Positions 1,419 to 64,000 are shown, numbered from the stretch's first letter. The stretch: 64,000 nucleotides of DNA from a virus (IMGVR_UViG_2897328257_000003), one strand, 5' to 3'. Numbers and translations are program-made. The notes: a model not told the origin generated them from the sequence alone.

Positions 1419-3863
1419 TTAAAAATCAGCCTGACTCGGGATCAGTTTTTGCCAGATAGCTGAAACGTATTTTGCCTGGTAACGCGCATCGTGCAGGGCA
1501 TTATGGCGCTCACCCTCAAATGTGATGACACTTCGAGCATCGAAATCCATCACCAGTCCCAGAGCAACCATCGTTCTTACATCGCGATCATTGGTGTAAC
1601 GCCATGGGCAGGGGATCCCCTGCCGTTCATATGAACGGCGTAAAATTACGTTGTCAAAGTTGGCTCCATTTCCCCAGACCTGAACAAAAAATTCACCGGA
1701 GTTTTCGTCGATAAATTCCCGTAATTGCAACAGTGCGTCATCCAACGGGATTTCATCGGTCAGAATGGCTGATTGTGCTTCCCGTGACTGTTTCAGCCAC
1801 CACTTAATGGTGTCCCGATCGATGACTCCGCCCGCGGTTTCCAGATCGATAGTTTTGCTGAATTCTGGCCCCATCTCTCCGGTTGCCGGATCAAAAAACT
1901 TACCGGCCAGAGCGTTTATTGGCGCATCAGGATTTTTGCCCATTGTTTCAAGGTCAATCATCAGATGGTGCCACAACCTGCTGGTGGATGTGCTTTCGTG
2001 ATGACCGTTCACCTTAATTAAGGGATTTGCTGTCTCGCCTGTTTCATTATTGCCATTGGCATGTTGATCGCCTTCGGTACACTCCTTGTTCGGGTATACG
2101 GCACTTTCCATTTCCTCTGGATCTTTCTCCCGGGCTTCATCCTGGCTTTCTTCGTTGAATGTTTCCTGGTATGTTGCGTCGCCCATTACCGCGCCACAGT
2201 CAGGACAGTTGCCGTCGCCGGTCTGACCGCAGGCGTTGCAGACTTTTTCCGGTTCTTGTTGCTCTTCTGGTTCAGGCTGTTTCGTTTCTGGCTCGTTTTG
2301 TAACGCATTTGGGCTGTTTTGTTCCGCTTTCTGGTCGTTTTGTTCCGATTTGTGCTGGTTCTGGTTCACAGAGTCGCGGGTTTCAATCCCCTTCACCCAT
2401 TTCGGATCATTCGGGTCGCTAATCCCTTCAACAAATTCTCCGTGAGAAGCAGCCAGTAATTTATCTGCATCGACAGGATTTTTGGGGGGAATGTTTTTCC
2501 TGGCTTCATGGAGTTCTGCACGCAGTTTCTGATATTTCGCATCAACAGAATTTATCTGTGGCTGAGCATCCATCGACTGCGTGTCCTGATTATGTTCAGT
2601 TGTATCCGGTTCCACTGCTTCAGTCGTTGCCTGTTCATCTGCCATTGCGCCAGTTGGCTGCGGTTTTTCTTCATCATCCTGTTTTCCTTCTTTTGTTACA
2701 CGCTGCGGCATTGGAGCAGAGGAGCGACCGCAGGCAATATCCACGATTTCTGGATCAGGGTTGGCATGGTCGGTTTCGGTCAGTACTTTGTTCAGATATT
2801 CGGTAACACGGTGGGGAGTAGCCTCGATACCAATTGGTGCTTCTTTCACGGACGCAACCACTATCGCGCGGGAATAATCCAGGTGACCAGGCATGGCGAT
2901 GAATTTGTCACGAAAAACAGAAAAGGGCGGCTTATTCTCTGAAACGATTTCTTCAATGCGTTTGGCGTGTGCCGGATGTGGATTGTAAATATCGATGTCC
3001 ATTGAACGGGCCAGAACGCCAGCGGCAACGTCACGTTCCACTGACGCATCATCGTGGACAAAACCTTCACCGCGATCGGTAAGAATTCCTCCGCCAGCAT
3101 TAGCGCCGGATGGCGTGCGGCTGATGCGTAAAACACGATTTCCTTTCATCCACTCTTTTGTCAGCAGACCTCGATCGGTATAGTCAGCGTCCAGGTATGC
3201 TTCGAAAAAAGCAGTCATTAACCCCAGACTGGAATTAACGGGATTAGGGAAAACTTTGTCTGTGTCGCGTACCAGTTTGTGAAGGTCGCGAATCTCCAGC
3301 GGGTCGAGCAGCTTTGTGTTGTGGGAAATAGCCAGGGCAGTAACAGCAGGCAGTTCTTCAGCTCGTGCGATATGTAATGCCTGAAGTTCTTCCCGTGAAA
3401 CGTGCGTTACCGGTTTTTCGCTGCCATGTTGCGCAAGCCAGCGAATGGGCAGTTCCTGACCGGAAATCGGCAGGAGCATATTATCCTCAATCTCAGCCAT
3501 GTCTTCGCCATTGACGTTGGTATTGTCAGAGCTGGCTGGTTTGTCCTGAACTGAGGGGGAAGGCGCTATAAATATCATTGTGATGCCATCTTCCCCGCCT
3601 TTTTCATAGCGGTTGCAGAATTCAGTATCGAACACACCTTCAGGCGGCAGGTCATTAACAATGGGCAAATTCACGCGAACAGGTTTTTTGAAATCCTCTT
3701 CGTCAAATCCAGCATCGTCCATTGCGACAACACCCCGTGATATTGCAACCGATAATTTTTTTGCTGTGCGCCAGTAAAAACCGCCTTTAATCCCAAGGCG
3801 TTTTCTGACTTTGTCATTTTTGGCTTCGTAATACAGTGCAATTTCTTCTTTATCAGTGCTCAT
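1419..3863 (-). CDS. Prophage exonuclease (814 aa) with central acidic/Gln-rich low-complexity region, Cys4 zinc-ribbon (CNACG..CPDCG) and C-terminal DEDD-type 3'-5' exonuclease-like domain; resembles proteins annotated as exodeoxyribonuclease VIII-like in E. coli prophages
   Basis: Long uninterrupted ORF in the early-left position next to xis; C-terminal motifs (..MIDLETMG.., ..HNALHDARY..) match DnaQ-like exonuclease signatures by eye. Confidence 0.7.
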
Positions 3864-4329: not shown

Positions 4330-4527
4330 TATCGCGTCCTCAACAATGAATTTTGTGATGTGGTGCCTGGTGCCTCCAGGTGACGTTAACCAGTTAACAA
4401 TTAACGCCGGANNNNNNNNNNNACGTTTGGTAGTGACGTTTCCATTATCGCGTCCTCAACAATGAATTTTGTGATGTGGTGCCTGGTGCCTCCAGGTGAC
4501 GTTAACCAGTTAACAATTAACGCCGGA
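4307..4527. repeat. Exact ~105-bp direct duplication flanking a ~10-nt N-run (approx. 4412-4422); probable contig-join artefact
   Basis: Sequence acgtttggtagtgacgtttccattatcgcg...ttaacgccgga occurs identically on both sides of the N-run. Confidence 0.6.
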
Positions 4528-57667: not shown

Positions 57668-58918
57668 GTGATGACCGGATTCAAAATTATGAGCAGAGCA
57701 CTTAACAAACTGAGCGATACACAGCTGAGGAAAATCAACGGCACACCCGCCCAAAAAACAGCCTTTCTTAATGACGGTGGAAACCTGAGCGTCAGGCATT
57801 CAACCAGTGGCCTTTTAACCTGGTATTTCACTTACAGGGCCGGAACGGGAAGGGGGGCACCACCGGAACGCATTAAGCTGGGAAATTATCCTGATCTGAG
57901 CCTGAAATCAGCCAGGGAAAAAGCCGCCCAGTGTCGCGCATGGCTGGCAGAGGGGAAAAATCCACGTCATGAAATGAATTACACCGTACAGGAAGCGTTA
58001 AAGCCGGTAACGGTTGGCGATGCGCTCACCTACTGGCTTGAGTCGTACGCAAAGGAAAACCGTGTGGATTATGACCCACTGAAAAAGCGGCTAAATAATC
58101 ACGTAATACAGCACATTGGCCCTATGCCGCTGGATAAATGCGAGCTACGGCACTGGCTGGCCTGTTTTGATCGGGTGGCAAAGAAAGCCCCTGTTTCCGC
58201 CGGGTTCCTGCTACAGACATGCAAGCAGGCGCTTAAGTTCTGCAGGAAGCGGCGCTATGCAATCAGCAACGTTCTTGATGATATGAGTGTGGCGGACGTT
58301 GGGAAAAAACCGGATATAAGTGAGCGTGTCTTAAGTAACAAAGAACTTGGCGAATTATTGCAGGCACTGGACAAAAAAATATTTTCCCCTTACTACGTCG
58401 CACTAATCCGCCTCCTGATTGTTTTCGGATGCCGGACAGTAGAACTGAGGTTATCGGAGATCGGCGAGTGGGATTTTACCGAAATGCTCTGGACCGTTCC
58501 GAAGGAGCACAGCAAAACGAAGGTAGCCATATTCCGGCCCATACCGGAAGCGATACTGCCGTTCGTCACGCAGCTGGTGGAGCAGAACAGGCACACGGGC
58601 TTATTGCTGGGGGAAGTGAAACAGGAAACCAGCGTATCGCAGTACGGCAGATTAGCGCACAGGAGGCTAAAACACCCTCAATGGTCATTGCATGACATCC
58701 GGCGCACCTTTACAACCATGCTGAACGATTTAGGCGTTGATCCTCACGTCGTGGAGCAGCTTACAGGTCATCAGATGCCAGGGATGCAACGAGTCTATAA
58801 CCACTCCCGTTATCTCGATGCGAAACGTGATGCGCTGGATATGTGGACGGAGCGGTTAGGAATACTGGCGGGAACACATGAAAACGTAACCACGCTACCA
58901 GTAACCAGAATAAAATAA
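57668..58918 (+). CDS. Tyrosine integrase, P4 family (DUF4102-type N-terminus); start may be 57671 or 57689
   Basis: 416-aa ORF; N-terminal ..LSDTQLRKINGT..DGGNLSV..W.FTYR..G..P..+.LGNYPDLSLKSAREKA.. pattern of P4-type integrases. Confidence 0.85.
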   Translation: MMTGFKIMSRALNKLSDTQLRKINGTPAQKTAFLNDGGNLSVRHSTSGLLTWYFTYRAGTGRGAPPERIKLGNYPDLSLKSAREKAAQCRAWLAEGKNPRHEMNYTVQEALKPVTVGDALTYWLESYAKENRVDYDPLKKRLNNHVIQHIGPMPLDKCELRHWLACFDRVAKKAPVSAGFLLQTCKQALKFCRKRRYAISNVLDDMSVADVGKKPDISERVLSNKELGELLQALDKKIFSPYYVALIRLLIVFGCRTVELRLSEIGEWDFTEMLWTVPKEHSKTKVAIFRPIPEAILPFVTQLVEQNRHTGLLLGEVKQETSVSQYGRLAHRRLKHPQWSLHDIRRTFTTMLNDLGVDPHVVEQLTGHQMPGMQRVYNHSRYLDAKRDALDMWTERLGILAGTHENVTTLPVTRIK

Positions 58919-59144
58919 TTTTTTTCGTGTTTTTTCAGTATGCGCATACTGGATAAGTGCACAGATACAACGTGAAACAATGTGCAACAACGTGACANNN
59001 NNNNNNNNATACTGGCGGGAACACATGAAAACGTAACCACGCTACCAGTAACCAGAATAAAATAATTTTTTTCGTGTTTTTTCAGTATGCGCATACTGGA
59101 TAAGTGCACAGATACAACGTGAAACAATGTGCAACAACGTGACA
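58862..59144. repeat. Exact ~136-bp direct duplication flanking a ~10-nt N-run (approx. 58998-59008); probable contig-join artefact
   Basis: atactggcgggaacacatgaaaacg...caacaacgtgaca occurs identically before and after the N-run; first copy includes the integrase 3' end. Confidence 0.6.
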
Positions 59145-59254
59145 CAATCACGAACAAGAGGCCAAAAAGAATACAGATTTGTAAGTTACTGATTTTCAAT
59201 GCTCAGCTGGTTTTTTATACATTAGTGAATTACGCGTTAAAGCGTGCGAAAAAA

Positions 59255-59285
59255 GGCATAAAACAAGATTTTATGCCTTTGTATT
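59255..59285 (+). terminator. Hairpin plus T-tract; candidate rho-independent terminator between the integrase and alpA regions
   Basis: aaaaaa-ggcataaaa-caaga-ttttatgcc-tttgtatt. Confidence 0.45.
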
Positions 59286-59439
59286 AACATGAATTTAAAT
59301 GATTTTATCCTGATTATTCCTCTTTCTGTAAACCATGCGACACCAACATTTGCCAACTCTGAATCATCCTGACACAATCAGACACATCCCAACGCAATAG
59401 AACACGAAATAACTCTTTAAGAAACGAAAGGGGGCAATA

Positions 59440-59628
59440 GTGTTAAGCACTGATCGGTTTATACGTGAAAAAGAATGCGAAAAGCTAACAGGCCTTAGCC
59501 GCTCATGCCGCTACCGCCTGGAAAAGGCCGGACAATTCCCATCACGTCGTAAACTTGGTGGGCGTTCTGTTGGCTGGTCTTTATCTGAGGTTTTGGCCTG
59601 GAAGGATAGCTGCAAGGCAGTTCACTAA
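59440..59628 (+). CDS. alpA: AlpA-family phage transcriptional regulator
   Basis: 62 aa; GTG start after AAGGGGG; ..RRKLGGRSVGWSLSEVLAW.. matches the AlpA family pattern. Confidence 0.8.
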   Translation: MLSTDRFIREKECEKLTGLSRSCRYRLEKAGQFPSRRKLGGRSVGWSLSEVLAWKDSCKAVH

Positions 59629-59968
59629 AAAGACTGGCGGCACACAGTCGCCACACATCCACTAATACAGAGATATAACTATGAAGATTGAATATGCGCC
59701 CGAACGTGGGCGGGGATTCGTTCGCCCTGGTGAAACTGAAAAACAACAAAATTGGGGTTTTTCAGGCATAAAAAAAGCGGCCCCGATATGGAGCCGCCTT
59801 TCTGAACAATTAACCTGCTGCGCCTTATGTGTATGTGATCCCAAACATAAGCACGGGAATGATAGCCGCTATCAGGCTGGTGGGCAATTACCTTGCTTGT
59901 TGGGGCCGTATTGTGCTGCCATTTTCATCCGTTCAGAACGTGAATATTTTTTTAGAAACTCATCAAGG

Positions 59969-60591
59969 NNNNNNNNNNNNNNNNNNNNNNNNNNNNNNNN
60001 NNNNNNNNNNNNNNNNNNNNNNNNNNNNNNNNNNNNNNNNNNNNNNNNNNNNNNNNNNNNNNNNNNNNNNNNNNNNNNNNNNNNNNNNNNNNNNNNNNNN
60101 NNNNNNNNNNNNNNNNNNNNNNNNNNNNNNNNNNNNNNNNNNNNNNNNNNNNNNNNNNNNNNNNNNNNNNNNNNNNNNNNNNNNNNNNNNNNNNNNNNNN
60201 NNNNNNNNNNNNNNNNNNNNNNNNNNNNNNNNNNNNNNNNNNNNNNNNNNNNNNNNNNNNNNNNNNNNNNNNNNNNNNNNNNNNNNNNNNNNNNNNNNNN
60301 NNNNNNNNNNNNNNNNNNNNNNNNNNNNNNNNNNNNNNNNNNNNNNNNNNNNNNNNNNNNNNNNNNNNNNNNNNNNNNNNNNNNNNNNNNNNNNNNNNNN
60401 NNNNNNNNNNNNNNNNNNNNNNNNNNNNNNNNNNNNNNNNNNNNNNNNNNNNNNNNNNNNNNNNNNNNNNNNNNNNNNNNNNNNNNNNNNNNNNNNNNNN
60501 NNNNNNNNNNNNNNNNNNNNNNNNNNNNNNNNNNNNNNNNNNNNNNNNNNNNNNNNNNNNNNNNNNNNNNNNNNNNNNNNNNNNNNNNNNN
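59969..60591. other. Unresolved sequence: 623-nt run of N inside the satellite element
   Basis: Contiguous n characters. Confidence 1.
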
Positions 60592-60708
60592 AGTGATTAT
60601 ACTGGAATCCAGTTGAGTGTTTATCACTCAATGCAAACGAGGCTGAAAAGGATTGCCGTCCTTTCGCAGCCTCTGACCACCAACGATAGCGAAAGTATCG
60701 AGGTAGCT

Positions 60709-60909
60709 ATGAGAAATCATACCACACACCCGCAAGGGCGGGACTCGCACAACCTGAATAAATTCACCTGGCGCTTTATGCAGTGCCTGACAGACAGCAT
60801 TGCAATATTCACCGTTACCGCTGCCACTGAGCGCGAAGCACGCGCACAGCTGCCGCACGCACATCTTATTTTTGTCGCCCGTATTCGTCAGGGGGTGTGC
60901 CGTGCTTAA
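60709..60909 (+). CDS. Icd-like (host cell division inhibitor-like) small protein
   Basis: 66 aa from ATG 60709 after GAGGTAG; ..ATEREARAQLPHAHLIFVARI.. matches the Icd-like motif recalled from P4-like islands. Confidence 0.55.
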   Translation: MRNHTTHPQGRDSHNLNKFTWRFMQCLTDSIAIFTVTAATEREARAQLPHAHLIFVARIRQGVCRA

Positions 60910-61087
60910 AACCTTCCGTGTATTTGCCAGCGCTGTTAACCCACTAGGCCACACAATTGGTATCGCTCAGAATGTGAAGGCTGTTAATGTTCAGACGGCT
61001 ATTGCTGCGGTGAGAAGCGAATCATCAGAATATGGCTTATCACAAGTCATTATTTCAGCAGTGTATGAATTAAAAGAGGTGCATTAA
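60902..61087 (+). CDS. Hypothetical small protein (61 aa, GTG start)
   Basis: ORF beginning inside the icd-like stop region after AGGGGG; ends TAATG overlapping the next start. Confidence 0.4.
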   Translation: MLKTFRVFASAVNPLGHTIGIAQNVKAVNVQTAIAAVRSESSEYGLSQVIISAVYELKEVH

Positions 61088-61278
61088 TGAAGGAAATTAC
61101 ATTACACGAAGCCGCTGAACGTGCGCACCAGACAGAAATTATTTGCCGACTTCTTGAGGTGTACCCTAATAAATTAAATGATGGTGATATATCCGCATTA
61201 GCTGGCCTTCTGGCAAAACTTTCTGGAAGTGTTGCGCTGTGGTTAATTGATGAGAGAGCCGAACGCTATGAAAAATAA
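61087..61278 (+). CDS. Hypothetical small protein (63 aa)
   Basis: ORF in a tightly packed co-directional block upstream of the primase. Confidence 0.5.
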   Translation: MKEITLHEAAERAHQTEIICRLLEVYPNKLNDGDISALAGLLAKLSGSVALWLIDERAERYEK

Positions 61279-61510
61279 TAAACTGGCGACCAGTGAATTA
61301 AGAAGCCTTGCCAACAGCGCAATATCTTTAAACAACGCAGCAAACGAAGTAATGAACATGTGGCTTCAGTCGCTGGTGAATAATGAACGCGATGAATCAA
61401 CCGCAAGATTAATATTAGCCGTTTCTGAATTACTGGATAGTTCAACCAGCAAAATAGAGAGCATATCAGAGAAGATTAACGGCTTATCAGGTCACGCTAT
61501 CGGAGAATAA
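61268..61510 (+). CDS. Hypothetical small protein (80 aa from ATG 61268)
   Basis: ORF overlapping the previous stop by 11 nt; ORF track offers a longer version from 61247. Confidence 0.5.
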   Translation: MKNNKLATSELRSLANSAISLNNAANEVMNMWLQSLVNNERDESTARLILAVSELLDSSTSKIESISEKINGLSGHAIGE

Positions 61511-61515
61511 AAATA

Positions 61516-61815
61516 ATGAAACTTAAATATCCTGGCTTAACTGCCAGCGGCAAAACTCGCACTAAATTCATGCGCGGGGATATTTACCGCGACCAGTACG
61601 GCGGCACGGTAACGATTAAAGGCGTGGAGGAACGGCGCATCACTTACCGCCGTGAAGGCTACGAATATGACTGCGTTATGCCTGTTTATCAGTTCGATCG
61701 TGATTTTTCTCTGGTACAGGCAGCGCCCCGCAGTAAACCAACCAGCAGGGAGAAAGCACGCGCCAATATTCAGGAAATAAAAAAGATGCTTAACGTATTC
61801 AGGGGTAAAAAATGA
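61516..61815 (+). CDS. Hypothetical protein (99 aa) immediately upstream of and coupled to the primase gene
   Basis: ORF with GGAG upstream; stop overlaps the primase start (ATGA). Confidence 0.55.
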   Translation: MKLKYPGLTASGKTRTKFMRGDIYRDQYGGTVTIKGVEERRITYRREGYEYDCVMPVYQFDRDFSLVQAAPRSKPTSREKARANIQEIKKMLNVFRGKK

Positions 61816-63560
61816 AACTGGCACCGAACGTAAAAAAACAGCCACGCGGAATAAAACACAAAGACACAGAGGTGATTATTTTCGCGGGTAGTGATGCGTG
61901 GGCACATGCAAAACAGTGGCAGGAGCAGGACGGCCCCGCATCCGGCGATAATGTGCCTCCTGTGTGGCTTGGGCCAAATCAGCTTGCCGAACTTGATGCA
62001 CTGCAAATTGTTCCTGATGGAAAAAAACGCGTAAGGCTGTACCAGGCAGGAGAACTGGACTTGGTGGAGACCAAAAAGATTGGTCAGAAGCTGGCGGCGG
62101 CAGATATTCAGGACACAAATTTTTACCCCGAAGGAATGCACGCCCAGAAGTGTGAAAACTGGCGGCGCTATCTGAATGCTGAGCGTGAAAATATTGCCGC
62201 AGGGCTTACCATGCCGGAGCAGAAAAATACGCAACTGGCACAAATGGCAGACAGTGAGCGCGCCCAGCTGCTTGCTGGTCGATTTGATGGCGTTTGCGTA
62301 CATCCTGAAAGTGAAATCGTTCACGTATGGCGCGGCGGGGTATGGTGTCCGGTCAGCACAATGGAACTTAGCCGCGAAATGGTGGCGATCTATTCAGAGC
62401 ACAGGGCCACTTTCAGCAAGCGCGTAATCAATAACGCCGTGGAAGCGTTAAAAGTTATTGCCGAACCAATGGGCGAGCCGTCTGGCGATTTGCTGCCGTT
62501 CGCCAATGGTGCGCTTGACCTGAAAACAGGGGAATTTTCCCCGCACACGCCGGAGAACTGGATCACCACGCACAACGGCATTGAGTACACGCCACCAGCA
62601 CCAGGGGAGAACATCCGCGATAACGCGCCAAACTTTCATAAATGGCTTGAGCACGCAGCCGGAAAAGACCCGCGCAAGATGATGCGTATATGTGCCGCGC
62701 TGTACATGATTATGGCGAACCGGTACGACTGGCAGATGTTTATTGAGGCCACCGGAGACGGCGGGAGCGGTAAAAGTACATTCACACACATAGCCAGCCT
62801 TCTGGCAGGGAAACAGAACACGGTAAGCGCTGAAATGACATCGCTTGATGATGCTGGTGGACGTGCGCAGGTTGTCGGGAGTCGTCTTATCGTCCTGGCT
62901 GACCAGCCGAAATATACAGGCGAAGGAACGGGCATCAAGAAAATCACAGGCGGCGACCCCGTGGAAATTAACCCGAAATATGAAAAGCGTTTCACGGCGG
63001 TAATCAGGGCGGTGGTGCTGGCGACCAACAACAACCCGATGATATTCACCGAACGGGCCGGAGGTGTGGCACGTCGTCGCGTGATTTTCCGTTTCGACAA
63101 TATCGTCAGTGAGGCCGAAAAAGACAGGGAGCTACCGGAAAAGATTGCGGCTGAAATCCCCGTTATTATCCGCCGATTGCTGGCGAACTTTACCGACCCT
63201 GAGAAGGCACGGGCTTTACTACTGGAACAGCGTGACGGTGATGAAGCACTGGCAATAAAGCAACAGACGGATCCGGTTATTGAGTTTTGCCAGTTCCTGA
63301 ATTTTCTGGAGGAAGCGCGCGGCCTGATGATGGGTGGCGGTGGTGATTCAGTGAAGTACACGACCAGGAACAGCCTTTACCGCGTCTATCTGGCGTTTAT
63401 GGCATACGCGGGCAGGAGCAAACCGCTAAACGTGGCTGAGTTCAGCAAGGCCATGAAGCCAGCGGCGAAAGTTTACGGGCATGAATATATTACGCGAAAA
63501 GTTAAGGGAGTAACGCAGACCAACGCAATTACAACAGACGATTGCGACGCGTTTTTATAA
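61812..63560 (+). CDS. Phage/plasmid primase-helicase, P4 alpha-like (SF3 P-loop NTPase C-terminal domain)
   Basis: 582 aa; Walker A ..EATGDGGSGKSTFTHIA..; Walker B-like ..LIVLADQP..; standard position in P4-like satellites. Confidence 0.85.
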   Translation: MKLAPNVKKQPRGIKHKDTEVIIFAGSDAWAHAKQWQEQDGPASGDNVPPVWLGPNQLAELDALQIVPDGKKRVRLYQAGELDLVETKKIGQKLAAADIQDTNFYPEGMHAQKCENWRRYLNAERENIAAGLTMPEQKNTQLAQMADSERAQLLAGRFDGVCVHPESEIVHVWRGGVWCPVSTMELSREMVAIYSEHRATFSKRVINNAVEALKVIAEPMGEPSGDLLPFANGALDLKTGEFSPHTPENWITTHNGIEYTPPAPGENIRDNAPNFHKWLEHAAGKDPRKMMRICAALYMIMANRYDWQMFIEATGDGGSGKSTFTHIASLLAGKQNTVSAEMTSLDDAGGRAQVVGSRLIVLADQPKYTGEGTGIKKITGGDPVEINPKYEKRFTAVIRAVVLATNNNPMIFTERAGGVARRRVIFRFDNIVSEAEKDRELPEKIAAEIPVIIRRLLANFTDPEKARALLLEQRDGDEALAIKQQTDPVIEFCQFLNFLEEARGLMMGGGGDSVKYTTRNSLYRVYLAFMAYAGRSKPLNVAEFSKAMKPAAKVYGHEYITRKVKGVTQTNAITTDDCDAFL

Positions 63561-63574
63561 TTTTTTGTAAAAGC

Positions 63575-63795
63575 CATCTACCCCATCTACCTGAACGAAA
63601 TAAACGCATATTATTCAACATGATAAGTGGGTATAGGGCTAGGTAGAAGGCTAATAAAAGCTCTCTACCTCTTCTACCTGATTTTATCAGTTTCAGGTAG
63701 CAGGGTAGACGGCAGGTAGAGGAGTCAAAAAAGCTATCTACCCGCTGAAAGCGGCGCCATTACTGACATGATGAGCATTCGGGTAGATGGGTAGA
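63575..63795. repeat. Iteron array, putative replication origin of the satellite element
   Basis: At least 11 copies of GGTAGA/TCTACC in both orientations within ~220 bp (e.g. catctaccccatctacc, tctacctcttctacc, ggtagcagggtagacggcaggtagagg, gggtagatgggtagagg) just downstream of the primase gene. Confidence 0.6.
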
Positions 63796-63845
63796 GGGGG
63801 GGGAGGCACAACTAAAAACTTTTTAAACGAGGGGGGGTGAAAATA

Positions 63846-64000
63846 AATGCGCATACATAAAAATCACTTAACAAACATGCCAGCCGAATACATGAATCAG
63901 GGGCGACAAATGACCCAAAAACGCAGAGACAGAACAGAGCCAAAATATAAAGCGTTAGACATGACTGAGCACACCTTAAAGGTGGCAATCAGAACGATAG
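63846..64000 (+). CDS. Hypothetical protein, 5' partial view (runs off the window end)
   Basis: ATG 63846 preceded by GAGGGGGGG; open frame to the window end (MRIHKNHLTNMPAEYMNQGRQMTQKRRDRTEPKYKALDMTEHTLKVAIRTI..). Confidence 0.35.

Follow-up and report, generated by a model that had tools for sequence, protein, structure and literature searches.

Four small genes ahead of a satellite replicase, among them rgdR, probably form the distal part of an early operon in a phage-inducible chromosomal island of Escherichia coli

The viral sequence IMGVR_UViG_2897328257_000003, analyzed here as one strand of 64,000 nucleotides (the window), carries at positions 60902–61815 four co-directional open reading frames (ORF1–4) of 61, 63, 80 and 99 amino acids on the plus strand, whose coordinates we verified in the sequence. 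Our interpretation, to which we assign a probability of about 0.8, is that this block makes up the distal part of the rightward operon of early genes, serving regulation and replication, in a phage-inducible chromosomal island (PICI) of E. coli, and that ORF4 encodes the published regulator RgdR. A first reading of the DNA (the original prediction) had described tightly coupled small genes in a satellite early region just 5′ of the replicase, and the ORF sizes, positions, overlaps and ATGA junction that it gave were all found as described. It recognized none of the four genes, and in this it was mistaken: ORF4 is RgdR, and ORF1–3 are ECs1578–1580 of the prototype capsid-forming PICI (cf-PICI). 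It had allowed that homology to characterized P4-family proteins would undercut its proposal, and characterized homology was indeed found for one gene of the four, rgdR, with no P4-family component. It had also raised lack of conservation as an objection; the block is instead conserved, with reading frames kept and ratios of nonsynonymous to synonymous substitution (dN/dS) of 0.17–0.31.

The assignment is carried by near identity to a known island. Over the whole block 892 of 914 nucleotides match positions 3691–4604 of L004, the Sp7 element of E. coli O157:H7 Sakai, which occupies the roxA (ycfD)–phoQ interval, as the island in the window does. Sp7 is also known as CP-933C, O-island 51 and EcCIEDL933, the prototype cf-PICI. 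The protein comparisons collected in Table 1 establish ORF1–4, as judged from sequence, as orthologues of ECs1578–ECs1581, and the sole nucleotide difference between ORF1 and its Sakai counterpart lies in the start codon, which is GTG here and ATG in Sakai. The four genes were already catalogued, and ORF4 was characterized in 2012.

Selection on the block was examined by comparing the window with six related islands (L001, L003, L004, L007, L008 and L010). Across divergent alleles, with synonymous divergence (dS) of 0.5–1.1, frame, length and stop codon are kept in all ORFs, the exception being a replaced ORF3 allele in L008. In the comparisons within this range of dS, dN/dS is 0.25–0.27 for ORF1 (0.25 against the L007 allele), 0.17–0.22 for ORF2, 0.23–0.27 for ORF3 and 0.23–0.31 for ORF4. 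E. albertii encodes an ORF1 homologue of identical length (61 amino acids, 29 of 61 identical) and, in the same arrangement, a 95-residue ORF4 homologue (61 of 99 identical). Because the frames are kept, dN/dS is low and homologues occur in E. albertii, these patterns of substitution establish ORF1–4 as real protein-coding genes under purifying selection. In many genomes RefSeq has these four coding sequences annotated, with identical boundaries.

The genes are closely linked throughout. The Icd-like gene (stop codon 60907–60909) runs 8 nt into the start of ORF1, a single base within TAATG (61085–61089) is common to the stop of ORF1 and the start of ORF2, ORF2 and ORF3 overlap by 11 nt (61268–61278), 5 nt separate ORF3 from ORF4, and the ORF4 stop overlaps the replicase start in an ATGA (61812–61815). 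A purine-rich run resembling a Shine–Dalgarno sequence lies 7–13 nt 5′ of each ORF start. No terminator-like site was found on the plus strand within the block, and the single promoter-like match inside it is no better than expected from shuffled sequence.

The identity of ORF4 is the firmest element of the interpretation. Its product matches Pfam DUF4222 (PF13973) with 83.1 bits against a gathering cut-off of 27 (E 1e-23, residues 17–68), and alignment with ECs1581 establishes it as RgdR; in one RefSeq record the gene already bears the name rgdR. Flockhart et al. 2012 (PMC3378721) described ECs1581/RgdR as a 99-residue protein that has an isoelectric point (pI) of 10.1 and an RGD motif at residues 20–22. 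Deletion of ecs1581 or of the whole island lowered type III secretion, and deletion of the island also reduced adherence to epithelial cells and shedding from sheep, with adherence restored by ecs1581 in trans (PMC3378721). Expression of RgdR activated the LEE1 promoter without need of Ler, GrlA or QseC, repressed motility and raised Congo-red binding, and the purified protein bound DNA weakly and non-specifically (PMC3378721). The CFT073 orthologue C1493 was functionally interchangeable with ECs1581, the ED1a variant (R20C) was inactive, reversion of C20 to R restored its activity, and K35N attenuated the protein (PMC3378721); our account of RgdR function and key residues draws also on PMC10877973. 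RgdR is encoded by all E. coli PICIs analyzed by Fillol-Salom et al. 2018 (PMC6092414).

The window RgdR differs from ECs1581 by five substitutions, D10A, M33T, V42I, H45R and R61D. Three of these (D10A, H45R and R61D) are common to the inactive ED1a variant, yet they are not the residues shown to matter. Because R20, G21 and D22 of the RGD motif at residues 20–22 are all retained together with Q27 and K35, the window allele is expected to be active. Across the family alignment residue 20 is variable (R, C, N, H, K, S or P) and G21 and D22 are invariant, so the conserved core is xGDIYRD.YGG and the R of the name-giving RGD is not conserved. Searching the RgdR sequence against the PDB gave chance matches only, and a tblastn search of the phage collection gave no match. 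A pattern-based scan of the genomes of other species, with patterns that are narrow, recovered RgdR from Shigella and E. albertii only.

By its gene order and insertion site the island is a PICI, not a P4-type satellite, and belongs to the lineage of EcCIEDL933/CP-933C/O-island 51/Sp7 and EcCICFT073. The order of integrase, AlpA and D5_N/DUF5906 replicase after roxA is that of a PICI, and the roxA–phoQ site is that of Sakai Sp7/EcCIEDL933/OI-51 and of EcCICFT073. The window ends 440 bp past the replicase. A second island, L015, is 100% identical to the window over 59009–59968 and 60592–64000 and has the same chromosomal flank; the integrase start in Table 1 was placed from the 409-residue gene called there. 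Beyond the replicase L015 encodes SSB, PerC, an HK97-type capsid, an S78 protease, portal and head-closure/connector proteins, HNH, TerS and TerL, which is the cf-PICI gene set, and on this content a cf-PICI in an identical locus is found elsewhere. Because the same module of ORF1–4 and replicase is also joined to two other packaging modules (L012, L014), it is by this comparison a shuffled cassette.

Among L012, L014 and L015 the identical module is accompanied by the HK97-type genes of a cf-PICI, by lambda-like genes (capsid E, decoration and Nu1) or by Terminase_2 with a capsid, and it occupies two chromosomal sites, roxA–phoQ and tqsA. A related island of strain 2015C-4136CT1 (L008 1–1250) lies inside a prophage major capsid gene, a helper-embedded arrangement of the kind described in PMC10111431.

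Table 1. Island features in the window, identity of the block proteins with those of Sakai, and number of complete E. coli genomes (of 5426) with a match; counts for rgdR and the whole block are from megablast and those for ORF1–3 from the more sensitive blastn, and the two sets are not strictly comparable.
Feature	Position	Strand	Gene or product	Matches and orthology	Identity with Sakai protein	Genomes with match
Tyrosine integrase	57689–58918	+	adjoins roxA (ycfD); PICI left end	Pfam Arm-DNA-bind_3, Phage_integrase		
alpA	59440–59628	+		Pfam Phage_AlpA, E 5e-18; 47% identical to P4 ORF88/Vis		
Icd-like gene	60709–60909	+	first gene of rightward operon	NCBIfam phage_ICD_like, 52.9 bits against cut-off 25; phrog_6196		
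Whole block	60902–61815	+	ORF1–4			149/5426 (megablast)
ORF1	60902–61087	+	GTG start, 61 aa	ECs1578 orthologue; phrog_3672, E 9e-46	61/61 aa	386/5426 (blastn)
ORF2	61087–61278	+	63 aa, acidic	ECs1579 orthologue; phrog_1478	62/63 aa	282/5426 (blastn)
ORF3	61268–61510	+	80 aa	ECs1580 orthologue; phrog_5796	80/80 aa	153/5426 (blastn)
ORF4 (rgdR)	61516–61815	+	99 aa, pI 10.1	DUF4222; ECs1581 orthologue	94/99 aa	1129/5426 (megablast)
Replicase (pri-rep)	61812–63560	+	582 aa, superfamily 3 (SF3) helicase type	Pfam D5_N, DUF5906, Pox_D5		

Four runs of N interrupt the window (4412–4422, 11539–52025 of 40 kb, 58998–59008 and 59969–60591), and most of it is masked. The 623-N run at 59969–60591, which separates alpA from the Icd-like gene, stands for 1108 bp of L015, so the masked length is not the real length; its counterpart there (L015 7872–8997) holds four small leftward ORFs, some of them YlcI/YnfO-like. 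A 136-bp stretch is duplicated on either side of the 11-N run (58862–58997 and 59009–59144) and is single copy in L015, and the duplication looks like an artefact of masking or of an assembly join rather than a genuine direct repeat or an att site. The divergent intergenic region 5′ of the Icd-like gene contains a perfect 7-bp inverted repeat, TTGAGTG-N5-CACTCAA (60613–60631), against a chance expectation of none. It may serve as an operator; the idea of a conserved operator was rejected, the palindrome being absent from the other 14 islands compared. An Rfam scan of the identical island L015 gave a sub-threshold chance match only.

Published work on related islands suggests how the block would be expressed. 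AlpA is the activator, with expression triggered by the helper phage (PMC6092414), and this role has been shown in EcCICFT073 (PMC6092414) and EcCIEDL933. In EcCICFT073 AlpA alone drives replicase-dependent replication (PMC6092414); EcCIEDL933 requires alpA, and its induction, replication and transfer depend on the helpers HK106 and HK446. We propose that the Icd-like gene, ORF1, ORF2, ORF3, rgdR and the replicase would be transcribed and translated as a single unit, almost silent while the island rests and switched on when the helper triggers AlpA. Co-expression of the block with the replicase at induction would be expected because AlpA alone suffices to drive replicase-dependent replication and rgdR is start/stop-coupled to the replicase.

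An AlphaFold2 (AF2) model of RgdR, built from a 35-sequence alignment, has a mean predicted local distance difference test score (pLDDT) of 73, with values of about 90 over core residues 20–68. The core is modeled as a five-stranded barrel with a short helix, followed by a helix at residues 77–97 of lower confidence, and the N-terminus (residues 1–14) is disordered. It is a safe conclusion from the model that RgdR is a predicted Tudor/SH3-like small barrel with a basic helix, a prediction that is new here. The best matches among viral models are small uncharacterized phage proteins, proteins of DUF1653 and a UvrD-like helicase at its C-terminus, and KOW, PWWP, DUF1653 and numerous further domains have the fold too. 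Barrels that bind RNA polymerase recur among the highest-ranking fold matches, which is suggestive without being proof. The likeness to the C-terminal Tudor domains of UvrD/PcrA and to the RNA-polymerase-interacting domain of CarD is structural only, with sequence identity of 12–18% and non-significant Foldseek scores.

On this model RgdR probably acts as a protein–protein cofactor and not as a classical operator-binding regulator, since a barrel (20–68) joined to a basic amphipathic helix (77–97) would suit protein docking with non-specific DNA contact. Raised LEE1 expression, reduced motility, increased Congo-red binding and non-specific DNA binding together, in our view, resemble the loss of H-NS silencing in hns mutants. 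A speculative and rather improbable extension is that RgdR serves a core satellite function rather than being a virulence accessory, as a CarD-like miniature, produced alongside the replicase on induction, that would dock on RNA polymerase or the silencer H-NS and make the AT-rich island accessible to replication and late transcription. If true, such action on RNA polymerase or on H-NS silencing would account for the increase in LEE1, the decrease in motility and the increase in Congo-red binding. We did not see a link between RgdR and H-NS drawn in the literature, where the check covered the single mention of H-NS in PMC3378721, an entry in its reference list.

Several observations weigh against the interpretation of the block as part of a helper-induced early operon with RgdR at its end. 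Foldseek comparison of the RgdR model with the PDB returned nothing significant (best E 0.028, to KOW, RapA and TnsB barrels), the similarity in fold is modest, and small beta-barrels are widespread. The AF2 model of ORF1, from a shallow 8-sequence alignment, is unusable (pLDDT 57). Related islands have two to four small leftward genes (YlcI/YnfO-like) between alpA and the Icd-like gene, and because these separate the two, the operon may have its own promoter. Deletion of rgdR alters type III secretion in uninduced enterohaemorrhagic E. coli (EHEC), without helper induction (PMC3378721), which implies some basal expression.

The tie between rgdR and the replicase raises the question of whether RgdR is primarily a replication protein. 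The gene lies immediately 5′ of the replicase in 58 of 60 sampled records, and does so also in Sakai, CFT073, E. albertii and a RepA-type island. The 4-nt overlap is kept with three unrelated helicase types, which are D5_N/DUF5906 in the window, DUF927 in Sakai and E. albertii, and AAA_25/RepA in ATCC 43889; start/stop coupling to at least three unrelated replicase types goes beyond what the literature describes. The three types share an N-terminal domain of about 125 residues (TEVIIFAGSDAW...) that belongs to no Pfam family (window 61812–62200; L004 4601–5000; L016 5312–5700; L010 4285–4680). Together with the accessory Tudor domains of helicases that are the best structural matches of RgdR, and with the same position being occupied by cnr in P4, this speaks for a model in which RgdR, perhaps with the ORF3-family protein, would mainly be a replication accessory similar in function to Cnr, binding the replicase N-terminal domain to load the enzyme, control copy number or help open the origin, the LEE and motility phenotypes being side effects. 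We consider this model unlikely, as RgdR has no sequence similarity to Cnr, the literature reports no replication phenotype for rgdR, and RgdR clearly affects chromosomal promoters while the island is not replicating (PMC3378721). The adjacency itself could mean that RgdR works together with the shared N-terminal domain of the replicases, or could simply reflect recombination breakpoints that lie beyond this domain.

The original prediction looked to P4 for the function of the block, proposing helper interference or derepression. Position is what stands of that comparison: in P4 the genes ORF88 (vis), cI, epsilon, orf151 and cnr precede alpha, much as alpA, the Icd-like gene and ORF1–4 precede the replicase here, ORF1–3 vary between islands as arms-race genes would, and relatives of ORF2 occur in the early regions of temperate phages. 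That ORF1–4 are counterparts of the P4 left-operon functions (epsilon-like derepression, interference and copy control) acting on a helper prophage is nevertheless quite improbable. BLASTP of ORF1–4 against the full set of P4 left-operon proteins (epsilon, orf151, cnr, cI and vis) returned nothing with E <0.2, and for epsilon, orf151 and cnr nothing with E <1; the psu, sid and delta families are absent from the identical island L015 and its relatives. PICIs are induced by the helper through AlpA, and the helper is not derepressed (PMC6092414). EcCIEDL933, which carries the same block, does not interfere with its helper, whose titers and plating it does not lower, and the interference of classical E. 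coli PICIs is reported to map to the downstream packaging module (PMC6739421). The further suggestion of small toxin/antitoxin-like regulators was apt in that at least one of the genes encodes a regulator, RgdR. A toxin–antitoxin or abortive-infection pair in the block is hardly credible, even though the genes are small, overlapping and co-directional in a mobile element, and some related islands have a HicB- or YlcI/YnfO-like gene just upstream on the opposite strand. ORF1–4 match no toxin, antitoxin or defense model in Pfam, NCBIfam or PADLOC, and no membrane-spanning or nuclease-like signature was found in any of the four proteins. Moreover, four genes are not a pair, and single genes are swapped or absent between islands, which a dependent pair could not tolerate.

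For ORF1–3, variability is the main feature. The slots between the Icd-like gene and rgdR differ among islands, with four other small genes in CFT073, two in 2013C-4282, and in E. albertii nothing but the ORF1 homologue ahead of rgdR. The alleles form a mosaic that changes from gene to gene, such that the identity of L007 is about 67% in ORF1, about 69% in ORF3 and 96% in RgdR, and L008 shows the reverse. ORF1 forms 11 protein clusters, all from E. coli, and the ORF3 family 24 clusters, again all from E. coli; distant ORF3 relatives fill the slot just before rgdR in CFT073 (25% identical) and 2013C-4282. The ORF2 family is broader, comprising phage and satellite early proteins of 60–90 amino acids (about 50 representatives at the 50% identity level), among them a 76-residue EcCICFT073 protein that is 52% identical and relatives, 47% identical, among the early genes of Klebsiella temperate phages. 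In Klebsiella phage ST340-VIM1phi10.1 (L011 3516–3704) a 62-residue ORF2 homologue, 47% identical, overlaps the end of a recombination-related exonuclease gene and lies in the early region downstream of the gene for a phage LexA-family regulator. Profile searches of ORF2 and ORF3 against PDB sequences and Pfam found no relative, and a search of the block DNA against the phage collection gave no match; ORF2 alone has relatives there, the weak ones in Klebsiella temperate phages. A common family for ORF2 and ORF3 was rejected, as a profile–profile test shows them to be unrelated. Both proteins are acidic (pI 5.2 for ORF2 and 5.1 for ORF3) and, from inspection of their sequences, are probably helical hairpins. 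We infer that ORF1–3 are small cytoplasmic accessory proteins; from their position and variability, our best guess is that they would modulate host or helper functions early after induction.

In sum, the block is largely ordinary, its genes carrying annotation in thousands of genomes, with one characterized in 2012. Matches to ORF1–3 lie downstream of an Icd-like gene in the records inspected. Nearly every match is chromosomal: of the 1405 places matching the block 1 is on a plasmid, and of those matching ORF1–3 none is. About one-fifth of complete E. coli genomes carry rgdR, coupled to a satellite replicase of whichever type. This coupling to replicases of any type suggests a primary role in the satellite life cycle, to which the virulence phenotype in EHEC would be incidental. 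ORF1–3 occupy a swap-prone slot in the early operon of the prototype cf-PICI, and are candidates for early manipulation of host or helper.

The P4 left operon resembles the region here in having a Vis-like regulator 5′ (47% identical to the AlpA here), small genes before the replicase, and a replicase, alpha, of which residues 326–756 only are 40% identical to residues 141–571 of the replicase in the window. It differs in that epsilon, orf151 and cnr are unlike ORF1–4, and in that the region corresponding to alpha residues 1–325, which we take to be the primase part, is missing from the 582-residue replicase here. In EcCICFT073, the prototype of the classical E. coli PICIs (PMC6092414), int and alpA are likewise followed by an Icd-like gene, small genes, rgdR (c1493, 82% identical) and the replicase, and the att site is shared, but there are four small genes in place of three, no counterpart of ORF1 and a different packaging module. 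In Sakai, ecs1581 occupies the same place before the replicase as rgdR does here, with the ATGA overlap and the same roxA–phoQ insertion site, although the gene that follows encodes a 710-residue replicase of DUF927 type in place of the 582-residue D5_N/DUF5906 type. Ahead of it, ECs1578–1580 of Sp7 have the same gene order and the same overlaps as ORF1–3 and differ from them by at most one residue.

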